64,000 nucleotides of DNA from Escherichia phage ESCO5: sequence record NC_047776.2; one strand, written 5' to 3'. The translations under genes and the position numbers were made by a program. A model generated the notes under the pieces. The model ran no database searches. It worked only from the letters and a program-made list of their open reading frames with translations, and was not told where the DNA came from. Below, one piece after another: positions 56,541 through 57,508 of the stretch. Numbering within the stretch: the first letter of the stretch is position 1; the number at the start of each line of letters is the position of its first letter.

Positions 56541-56570
56541 TTGACAACAAACATTATTTTATGTTAGATT
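56541..56570 (+). promoter_or_regulatory. Sigma70-like promoter with extended -10 (TTGACA, 18 nt spacer, TGnTAGATT)
   Basis: Immediately upstream of tRNA-Ser at 56579. Confidence 0.45.
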
Positions 56571-56578
56571 ATAAGTAT

Positions 56579-56669
56579 GGAAGGGCAAATCGACGTGGCG
56601 ACGAAAACGGTCTTGAAAACCGCCGAGCTTGAAAGAGCCTTGGGAGTTCGACTCTCCCTCCTTCCGCCA
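56579..56669 (+). tRNA. tRNA-Ser (anticodon TGA), type II
   Basis: Anticodon arm CGGTCTTGAAAACCG matches E. coli tRNA-Ser(UGA); long variable arm; discriminator G; encoded CCA. Confidence 0.7.
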
Positions 56670-56760: not shown

Positions 56761-56890
56761 AGTTCTTTTTAATGTAGCTTACTTTAGCAGAGTAAATCTT
56801 CGGCAAGTGGCGGTAACCACTTTACCGATACCTCATAGTTAGTGGTGCGAACACTGGCTATTTTAAAAAGAATTTAAATATTAGTATTTA

Positions 56891-56978
56891 GGTGAGTTAA
56901 TTCCGTAGGGGTAGCGGGGCAGACTGTAAATCTGTTATCATTGCGATTCGGGTGGTTCGACTCCATCACTCACCACCA
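56891..56978 (+). tRNA. tRNA-Tyr (anticodon GTA), type II
   Basis: Anticodon arm GCAGACTGTAAATCTG matches E. coli tRNA-Tyr; long variable arm; discriminator A. Confidence 0.7.
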
Positions 56979-56984
56979 AATTAA

Positions 56985-57070
56985 GATGAGTTGGCTGAAT
57001 GGTTTAAGCGGCGGACTGTTAATCCGTGTTCGAAAGAACAATATAGGTTCGAATCCTATACTCATCGCCA
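56985..57070 (+). tRNA. Type-II-shaped tRNA with GTT (Asn) anticodon and discriminator G
   Basis: Acceptor GATGAGT/ACTCATC, 3-bp D-stem, anticodon arm GCGGACTGTTAATCCGT as in E. coli tRNA-Asn, extra GTTC-GAAA-GAAC hairpin in the variable region, T-arm ATAGG-TTCGAAT-CCTAT. Confidence 0.55.
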
Positions 57071-57077
57071 GAATTAT

Positions 57078-57152
57078 GGACTTGTAGAGTTAAGGTAAAC
57101 CCCCAGTCGCCAATAGGCTTCTGGAATTGCAGGTATCGAATCCTGCCGAGTC
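57078..57152 (+). pseudogene. tRNA-like remnant with aberrant anticodon domain
   Basis: Acceptor-like GGACTTG/CGAGTCC and T-arm-like GCAGG-TATCGAAT-CCTGC (8-nt loop); no 7-nt anticodon loop could be folded. Confidence 0.3.
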
Positions 57153-57160
57153 CCAGCATT

Positions 57161-57235
57161 GCTCCTATAGTATAATGGCTATTACAACGGTTTTGTAATC
57201 CGTGGATCTCTGTTCGATTCAGTGTGGGAGCACCA
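57161..57235 (+). tRNA. tRNA-Thr (anticodon TGT)
   Basis: Acceptor GCTCCTA/TGGGAGC, anticodon loop TTTGTAA, T-loop TTCGATT, encoded CCA. Confidence 0.6.
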
Positions 57236-57508
57236 ACACAACATTAAGAGCACTGTGATTGATCGTCGTATCCTGTGCACAAGGTCTGCTCGAAAGACAG
57301 TGTTCTTAGTATTGTGTTGATCACAAAAAGAGTCACCCGAAACTTGACCGGAGTAGGGTTGGATGGGGCAAAATGAGAAGCGGCTCTCCCATCGACAGCA
57401 ACGAAGAATAATATTTGACTTTTGTTTTGTATTATTTTAAGTTAGCTTACCGAACGTAGGGCTAGTCACCCAACGGGATACTCGTCACTGTCCCACTCAA
57501 TAAAACTA

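Follow-up and report, generated by a model that had tools for sequence, protein, structure and literature searches.

A tRNA gene of unusual shape lies at positions 56985-57070 of the 64,000-nucleotide (nt) stretch of Escherichia phage ESCO5 DNA (NC_047776.2) analysed here, the whole of which is called the window below. The gene encodes a tRNA-Asn(GUU) that combines the anticodon arm of the host tRNA with a long variable arm. Long-arm tRNA-Asn is a large family carried by viruses and tRNA arrays and hardly ever found in cellular genomes. Within that family the arm is conserved and covarying, comes with a class II style D arm, and is not a private insertion of this phage. From sequence comparison we infer that the product is a working Asn tRNA charged by the asparaginyl-tRNA synthetase (AsnRS) of the host, a reading to which we assign a probability of about 0.6; charging with serine is unlikely. 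In textbooks, the long variable arm is confined to tRNAs for Leu, Ser, bacterial Tyr, and selenocysteine, and a widespread, virus-confined tRNA-Asn of class II shape, with rarer counterparts for Thr, Cys, Trp, Ile, and Lys, is a large-scale break of that rule.

Structure of the tRNA-Asn gene

ARAGORN called a tRNA-Asn(gtt) of 86 nt exactly at 56985-57070 on the plus strand. The molecule matched the Rfam tRNA model RF00005 over its full length with 62.1 bits, well above the gathering score of 29, and the alignment placed GUU in the anticodon position and treated 12 nt of the variable region as an insertion. Unconstrained folding of the 86-mer alone with ViennaRNA gave the same five-helix cloverleaf at -23.7 kcal/mol. 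Its parts, with lengths in base pairs (bp) or nt, are as follows.

56985-57070, plus strand: class-II-shaped tRNA-Asn(GUU) with encoded CCA, 86 nt (ARAGORN; Rfam RF00005)
56985-56991, plus strand: acceptor stem of 7 bp, 5' strand GAUGAGU, pairing with ACUCAUC at 57060-57066 (ARAGORN and covariation)
56994-57009, plus strand: D arm with 3-bp stem GCU/AGC and 10-nt loop GAAUGGUUUA (ARAGORN)
57011-57027, plus strand: anticodon arm GCGGA-CUGUUAA-UCCGU, anticodon GUU at 57018-57020 (Rfam; comparison with E. coli)
57028-57042, plus strand: variable region, 15 nt (ARAGORN, ViennaRNA)
57028-57031 with 57036-57039, plus strand: variable-arm stem of 4 bp, GUUC/GAAC, beginning directly after the anticodon stem
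57032-57035, plus strand: GAAA tetraloop of the variable arm (ARAGORN, ViennaRNA)
57040-57042, plus strand: three unpaired bases, AAU, 3' of the variable-arm stem (ARAGORN)
57043-57059, plus strand: T arm AUAGG-UUCGAAU-CCUAU with 5-bp stem (Rfam, ARAGORN)
57067-57070, plus strand: discriminator G73 (57067) followed by the encoded CCA (57068-57070) (sequence)

With 15 nt that include a stem-loop, the variable region is of the class II kind, defined by at least 10 nt forming a stem-loop, and its stem has no unpaired base on the 5' side and three on the 3' side. The D arm is likewise of class II form, having a 3-bp stem, a larger loop, and an unpaired 13/22 position, where G13 stands opposite an A; it contains the pair C11-G24. 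The first acceptor pairs are G1-C72, A2-U71, and U3-A70, and the acceptor and T stems divide the helix into 7 and 5 bp. An alternative fold that uses GUUCGAA of the arm as a false T loop was rejected, the arm sequences being unrelated in other genera.

The 19-nt stretch CGGCGGACTGTTAATCCGT is identical in asnT, asnU, asnV, and asnW of E. coli K-12, and this match bears out an earlier note, made from the sequence alone, that the Asn anticodon arm equals that of the host. The 3-bp D stem and the GTTC-GAAA-GAAC hairpin described there were recovered by both ARAGORN and ViennaRNA, the G discriminator is present at 57067, and the two tRNA-Ser genes and the tRNA-Tyr gene said to lie directly before were identified with ARAGORN and Rfam as Ser(UGA), Ser(GCU), and Tyr(GUA). 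The covariance-model fold that it had proposed as a check is the RF00005 alignment given above. The tRNA region is 100% identical in Escherichia phage vB_EcoM_REC (OM386667.1, Phapecoctavirus), where the gene, REC_00209, is annotated as a plain tRNA-Asn, and about 300 related phage records match.

A family of long-arm tRNA-Asn in viruses

A sensitive BLAST search of GenBank phages with the 86-mer matched 756 records, and most matches span the variable arm and an annotated tRNA-Asn. Counted by the first word of the organism name, 240 are from Salmonella, 195 from Escherichia, and 178 from Klebsiella; Enterobacter, Pseudomonas, Proteus, and Erwinia occur as well. Eleven representative phages were fetched and run through ARAGORN, and arm-bearing tRNA-Asn(GUU) of 84-87 nt was found in ten phage genera or groups:

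Phapecoctavirus: the window itself, ASO2A
Justusliebigvirus: AV123
Winklervirus (T4-like): CBH8
Karamvirus (T4-like): CC31
Epseptimavirus (T5-like): SB9
Novosibvirus (T5-like): RP7
Mydovirus: KPP-1
Henunavirus: pEp_SNUABM_01
Alcyoneusvirus (jumbo): Muenster
Unclassified 278-kb Pseudomonas phage: 2PS

The Kuttervirus SeF6a has instead an ordinary-shaped tRNA-Asn of 75 nt with a host-like anticodon arm.

Larger collections were scanned with the pattern GGACTGTTAATCC, 18-24 bases, GTTCRA, which fixes the anticodon arm. At least 120 viral contigs of IMG/VR matched, and ARAGORN called an arm-bearing tRNA-Asn in 109 of the 120 listed. The same scan of 185,579 bacterial and archaeal species genomes, one per species, returned 64 stretches, only 17 of which were confirmed by ARAGORN as arm-bearing tRNA-Asn. 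These 17 loci lie mostly in dense arrays with 10-36 tRNA genes per 8 kb, and none of them belongs to Enterobacterales; among 5,426 complete E. coli genomes, no match to the pattern was found. The fetched loci together yielded 104 distinct sequences of arm-bearing tRNA-Asn. In six viral contigs, an ordinary tRNA-Asn lies beside an arm-bearing one. A covariance model of the family, R1, was tried as a classifier but gave no separation, since it matched 535 tRNAs of every type at E<=1e-6.

Covariation was computed on the ten-genus alignment with shuffled and slid controls. In this alignment, 99.2% of cells pair and 18 of the 24 pairs show changes on both sides, values that the controls came nowhere near. 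All seven acceptor pairs covary. The variable-arm pairs are formed in 97.4% of cases, and all four show compensatory changes on both sides, the stem occurring as UUC/GAA, AAC/GUU, AGC/GCU, UCA/UGA, or UCC/GGA, with the first pair changing from G-C to A-U; therefore, the arm is under selection for pairing. Across the family it consists of a helix of 3-4 bp with mostly a GNRA tetraloop, placed directly atop the anticodon stem and followed by 3-4 unpaired bases.

The ARAGORN structures of every distinct tRNA at the fetched loci were then tabulated, as follows.

Arm-bearing tRNA-Asn (n=69): arm stem 3-4 bp; 3-4 unpaired 3' bases in 56; G73 in 62; pair 1-72, U-A in 41 and G-C in 23; pair 2-71, C-G in 28, G-C in 27, and A-U in 9; pair 3-70 mixed
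tRNA-Ser (n=59): arm stem mostly 4-6 bp; one unpaired 3' base in 43; discriminator G in 35 and U in 20; pair 1-72, G-C in 55; pair 2-71, G-C in 57; pair 3-70, A-U in 53
tRNA-Tyr (n=26): arm stem 3-4 bp; three unpaired 3' bases in 19; A73 in 25; pair 1-72, G-C in 23; pair 2-71, G-C in 15; pair 3-70, G-C in 16
Ordinary tRNA-Asn (n=21): no arm; G73 in 21; pair 1-72, U-A in 12 and G-C in 9; pair 2-71, C-G in 19; pair 3-70, C-G in 13

The arm geometry of the family is thus that of bacterial tRNA-Tyr and not that of tRNA-Ser, and the family joins this Tyr-like geometry to an Asn-like acceptor end without the Ser acceptor signature. The same contrast in geometry separates serU from tyrU in E. coli, the arm of serU having one unpaired base, 6 bp, and one unpaired base.

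Arm-bearing versions of other tRNAs

Among the non-Asn matches of model R1, the best were tRNAs for Cys, Ile, Trp, and Thr that bear such an arm and come from the same viral contigs. The examples below are given by locus number and position.

Cys(GCA): U73 in 6/6; L118 345-428, L119 13818-13901, L120 1324-1407
Trp(CCA): G73 in 3/3; L009 1065-1151, L088 1347-1430
Thr(UGU): mostly A73, in T5-like phages; L086 4406-4492, L156 8998-9084
Ile(GAU): A73; L120 440-525
Lys(UUU): A73; L014 1693-1780

An arm-bearing Asp tRNA with G73 was found too, and Rfam confirms the Thr and one of the Trp genes. The arms share one design, with the same short stem, a GNRA-type loop, and 3-4 unpaired bases, and the discriminator in each group is that of the anticodon's own family, for which the A73 of E. 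coli thrU and the discriminators of the E. coli tRNAs for Cys, Trp, Ile, and Lys served as comparison values. An arm that recruits seryl-tRNA synthetase (SerRS) would demand a shared G73; because the discriminators differ, the arm is probably an add-on that would leave identity with the anticodon family.

Two other viral tRNAs with additional elements were observed. Erwinia phage pEp_SNUABM_01 (Henunavirus) encodes an 87-nt tRNA-Lys(UUU) at L009 2328-2414 whose D loop contains an extra hairpin, GAC-GCAA-GUC; it scores 55.6 bits with Rfam and was missed by ARAGORN. Several viral tRNA-Ile(UAU) genes (L095 9355-9446, L093 1697-1792, L121 7444-7538, and others) have variable regions of 21-27 nt, which are longer than and unlike the Asn-type arm, their loops mostly containing AGAU (CAGAUUA, AGAUAA).

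Charging of the long-arm tRNA-Asn

In E. coli, the GUU anticodon and G73 are enough to transplant Asn identity; SerRS reads the long variable arm, the acceptor stem, and G73 and ignores the anticodon, C2-G71 is an antideterminant against it, and G73 is an antideterminant for tyrosyl-tRNA synthetase (PMC9976931). These rules agree with those on which the earlier note had relied. The window tRNA has the whole Asn set, i.e., G34, U35, and U36 in a 7-nt loop identical to that of asnT, and G73. Asn codons make up 48.8 per 1000 in the open reading frames of the phage, which has a G+C content of 38.5% over the window, and most of them are AAU; ARAGORN found only one tRNA-Asn in the window. Because the Asn set is complete, the Ser acceptor signature is missing, and the codon demand fits, asparagine would be the most likely amino acid. 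The tRNA would be cotranscribed with its neighbours from a predicted strong sigma-70-type promoter, receive asparagine from the host AsnRS, for which GUU and G73 would suffice, and serve as a working elongator that reads AAU and AAC.

Several observations pull the other way. The window tRNA shares G1-C72, C11-G24, G73, and a structured arm with the E. coli Ser set, and Normanly et al. reportedly assigned in 1992 a role in Ser identity to C11-G24. The tRNA-Ser(GCU) of the phage itself has an arm of only 4 bp, so a short arm alone is no bar to SerRS. The variable arm might also hinder AsnRS, since class IIb synthetases are said to approach the tRNA from the side of the variable loop, as in the complex of aspartyl-tRNA synthetase that Ruff et al. 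described in 1991. The pairing of ordinary and arm-bearing copies in one contig hints at non-redundant roles, and the conservation of the anticodon arm in the metagenomic set follows from the construction of the search pattern.

Charging by SerRS, wholly or in part through the long arm and G73, would place Ser at AAU and AAC as mistranslation or recoding, and would mean that hundreds of phages recode Asn codons. Such charging could draw on the indifference of SerRS to the anticodon and its reliance on the arm together with G73 and the acceptor stem (PMC9976931), on the 15-nt variable region, equal in length to that of the phage tRNA-Ser(GCU), and on the precedent of allo-tRNAs, by which non-Ser codons are read as Ser in E. 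coli (PMC7609411). Nevertheless, we regard it as improbable. Of the two acceptor pairs that are near-universal in tRNA-Ser, G2-C71 is replaced by A2-U71, though G1-C72 is present, and A3-U70 by U3-A70; the phage's own tRNA-Ser(GCU) also has U3-A70, so the latter pair is not strict. SerRS is sensitive to the orientation of the arm, which in tRNA-Ser is set by about one unpaired base on each side, and the three unpaired 3' bases of the window tRNA depart from it. Himeno et al. reportedly found in 1990 that serine acceptance by tRNA-Tyr required G73 together with a longer arm. Many members of the family have C2-G71 or U1-A72, the determinants for AsnRS are all present and conserved, sister tRNAs with the arm have discriminators other than G, and a tRNA that turns Asn into Ser proteome-wide would hardly be kept by hundreds of phages that have no other tRNA-Asn. 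The ambiguity of charging seen in the earlier note may persist, but the comparison gives no support to the idea of Ser inserted at Asn codons, in view of the missing G2-C71 and A3-U70, the Tyr-like arm, the C2-G71 of 28 of the 69 family members, and the sister discriminators. Its other suggestion, that of an ordinary Asn tRNA carrying an insertion, is nearer to the evidence but understates a conserved, covarying, virus-borne family. Least probable of all is an RNA without a role in translation, either a nuclease decoy or competitive inhibitor or a decaying pseudogene. The authors of the study on the PARIS defence system raise overexpressed viral tRNAs as possible inhibitors of its nuclease AriB (PMC12409363), a tRNA-like RNA without an anticodon loop adjoins the gene, and a degenerate copy exists in phage Bas34; however, all helices are intact, as are the invariant bases of the T and D loops, the anticodon loop of 7 nt with its U33 and A37, G73, and CCA, the pairs covary across genera, and the gene is the sole tRNA-Asn found in the window of a phage rich in AAU codons.

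By comparison with known tRNAs, the molecule would work like tRNA-Asn and has the look of tRNA-Tyr. With E. coli tRNA-Asn(GUU), it shares the 19-nt anticodon arm, G73, and the codons read, but the host tRNA is of class I, with a 5-nt variable loop, a 4-bp D stem, and an 8-nt D loop in place of the 15-nt arm and 3-bp D stem, and its acceptor begins U1-A72/C2-G71/C3-G70 where the phage tRNA has G1-C72/A2-U71/U3-A70. Bacterial tRNA-Tyr(GUA) has the 3-4-bp arm, the three unpaired 3' bases, and G34-U35 in common with it but differs by A73 and A36, by which the phage tRNA falls outside tRNA-Tyr. Bacterial tRNA-Ser shares the class II body, G73, and C11-G24, and differs by G2-C71, A3-U70, arms mostly of 4-6 bp, and usually one unpaired 3' base. 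Nematode arm-bearing tRNAs with Gly or Ile anticodons are reportedly charged with Leu (Hamashima et al., 2012). SerRS-charged allo-tRNAs also join a long arm to an anticodon of a class I family, with identity set by the arm, but their acceptor/T helices are 8/4 or 9/3 and not 7/5, which sets the phage tRNA apart from them (PMC7609411). Both the allo-tRNAs and the nematode tRNAs carry the identity set of the synthetase that reads the arm; the phage tRNA has the full Asn set and no Ser acceptor signature.

Possible role of the arm

As the most likely reason for the arm, we tentatively propose, at about one chance in three, that it shields the tRNA against host defence nucleases that cut the anticodon stem. 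AriB of PARIS cuts tRNA-Lys(UUU) as well as tRNA-Thr(UGU) and, less efficiently, tRNA-Asn(GUU) between positions 40 and 41, and the Lys, Thr, and Asn tRNAs of T5 jointly neutralize the system (PMC12409363). The targets of P2 OLD are paired CNG motifs in the stem, which it cuts in ThrU and, more slowly, in the tRNAs for Lys, Asn, and Val; phage tRNA-Thr variants whose motif is altered and whose stem is shorter escape it (PMC12445682). Position 44, where the arm begins, is three bases away from the site of AriB cleavage, which makes a steric block plausible. The arm would reshape the region next to the 3' strand of the anticodon stem so that AriB and P2 OLD would no longer fit, and the anticodon arm could then stay identical to that of the host for AsnRS, for the enzymes of queuosine and N6-threonylcarbamoyladenosine (t6A) modification, and for decoding. 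For the same problem, T5 appears to have the opposite solution: its tRNA-Asn has an ordinary shape and a heavily altered anticodon stem, as does, similarly, its tRNA-Thr, and the arm-bearing Asn and Thr tRNAs of T5-like phages have host-like anticodon arms. Nuclease-resistant phage tRNAs already known (T5 Lys, Thr, and Asn against AriB; tRNA-Thr against P2 OLD) are likewise copies of tRNAs cut by the host, including Asn(GUU), but they keep the ordinary shape and carry base changes or a shortened anticodon stem; here the arm is added, the anticodon arm is unchanged, and resistance is putative. The PARIS experiments with T5 tRNA-Asn were set aside as a direct test of the arm, that tRNA being ordinary-shaped with a mutated anticodon stem.

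One published contrast, between the T5-like phage Bas33 (HildyBeyeler) and phage Bas34 (SelmaRatti), named according to the BASEL supplement, fits a shield and lends indirect support to charging with Asn as well. Bas33 has an intact 86-nt arm-bearing tRNA-Asn, and under PARIS it is rescued by T5 tRNA-Lys alone; Bas34 needs T5 tRNA-Asn to be supplied (PMC12409363). The arm-bearing tRNA-Asn of Bas34 (L200 136-218) is degenerate, with three acceptor-stem mismatches and U32, and receives no ARAGORN call, which may explain this need. Some facts speak against a shield. According to the text of the paper, Bas34 needed all three T5 tRNAs, including a tRNA-Lys that it apparently encodes itself, and the contrast between the two phages is weak because of this; T4 and T7 need no tRNA-Asn under PARIS (PMC12409363). 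The window tRNA retains both cleavage motifs, C28-G-G/C40-C-G and UAAUC|C, the Kuttervirus tRNA-Asn combines an ordinary shape with a host-like arm, and the tie between arm and nucleases is one of association.

The main alternative, which we hold less likely, is that the tRNA is charged with Asn and functional while the arm has no part in defence, being the legacy of a class II ancestor, for example a copy of tRNA-Tyr(GUA) that shifted to GUU and G73, or a tolerated hairpin insertion; in either case, the arm would persist only because the class II core depends on it for folding. The arm geometry is Tyr-like, the Tyr and Asn anticodons are one base apart, and in this phage the acceptor strand GAUGAGU differs from GGUGAGU of the adjacent tRNA-Tyr in one pair. 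Other genera (Justusliebigvirus, Mydovirus, Epseptimavirus, and Winklervirus) do not show this acceptor likeness, and for that reason an origin by duplication of the adjacent tRNA-Tyr was rejected and is kept only as a possible local event. The ordinary tRNA-Asn of the Kuttervirus is 84.8% identical to positions 7-52 of the window tRNA, with D arms that align closely, and gain or loss of the hairpin therefore occurs within one lineage. Covariation attests selection for pairing and implies no particular function. On the other hand, a form that is almost never cellular and recurs in viruses and tRNA arrays across several amino-acid families points to a virus-specific advantage, and some phages keep ordinary and arm-bearing copies together.

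If a protective role of the arm is granted, a broader view might be entertained, again tentatively, in which a GNRA-capped helix on class I tRNAs is a general viral "armouring" against tRNA-cutting defences. The tRNAs for Asn, Thr, Cys, Trp, and Ile would carry the helix in the variable region and the Henunavirus tRNA-Lys would carry it in the D loop, all determinants for synthetases and decoding would stay identical to those of the host, and the class-II-shaped tRNA-Asn would be the commonest example. Current models of escape in the phage-host conflict over tRNAs involve only point changes in the anticodon stem, and a shielding arm, if true, would be a second route beside such mutations; an arm that blocks nucleases would also provide a portable design rule for nuclease-proof tRNAs and phage engineering. 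Apart from defence, the family is a natural experiment on the tolerance of AsnRS and other class I-type systems to an additional arm. In the literature searched, which covered titles outside subscription, no description of a long-arm phage tRNA-Asn was found; the word "variable" is absent from the PARIS paper (PMC12409363), and phages are unmentioned in a 2020 review of non-canonical tRNAs. The family also matters for annotation, as such genes are labelled plain "tRNA-Asn" and several odd neighbours in the cluster are missed by ARAGORN.

Gene cluster around the tRNA

The gene belongs to a run in the order Ser(UGA)-Ser(GCU)-Tyr-Asn-tRNA-like-Thr, and the promoter-like site listed here is the first one upstream of that run.

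56541-56570, plus strand: promoter-like site TTGACA-18-TAGATT with TG (10/12, consensus match only)
~56579-56669, plus strand: tRNA-Ser(UGA) (Rfam; tRNAscan-SE annotation in the 98%-identical phage ASO2A)
56675-56760, plus strand: tRNA-Ser(GCU) (ARAGORN)
~56891-56978, plus strand: tRNA-Tyr(GUA) (Rfam; tRNAscan-SE annotation in the 98%-identical phage ASO2A)
58320-58338, plus strand: intrinsic-terminator-like hairpin and T run closing the tRNA cluster (pattern; terminator annotated at the matching place in phage ASO2A)

Both tRNA-Ser(UGA) and tRNA-Tyr(GUA) were missed by ARAGORN. The best model for the former is that of selenocysteine tRNA, with 37.4 bits, below the threshold of that model; the latter, with an irregular D arm, scores 39 bits on the tRNA model. 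Directly 3' of tRNA-Asn, at 57078-57155 on the plus strand, lies an unannotated tRNA-like RNA that was called by neither ARAGORN nor Rfam. Its acceptor stem has 7 bp, its T-arm loop reads AUCGAAU, and its end is CCA-like, but a bulged hairpin with a 4-nt loop takes the place of the anticodon loop; the RNA shares UGUAGAGUUAAG(G)UAAACC and its position with the T5 "rna3, putative tRNA-like RNA" (L196 9878-9950, minus strand). The following tRNA-Thr(UGU), at 57161-57235 on the plus strand, has a U31-U39 mismatch, which leaves an anticodon stem of 4 bp with the paired CNG motif still present; a shortened stem is a reported aid to the resistance of phage tRNA-Thr against P2 OLD. Two spacers between tRNAs on the plus strand fold strongly, perhaps as stable small RNAs of the kind annotated in the tRNA region of T5: that at 56761-56890 is closed by an 11-bp stem (z = -3.2 versus shuffles), and that at 57236-57317 starts with a hairpin that is long and near-perfect (the 185 nt tested gave z = -1.5). 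In T5, the gene T5.081 (L196 17618-18052), which encodes 144 amino acids and lies beside the tRNA region, is annotated as "tRNA amidotransferase".

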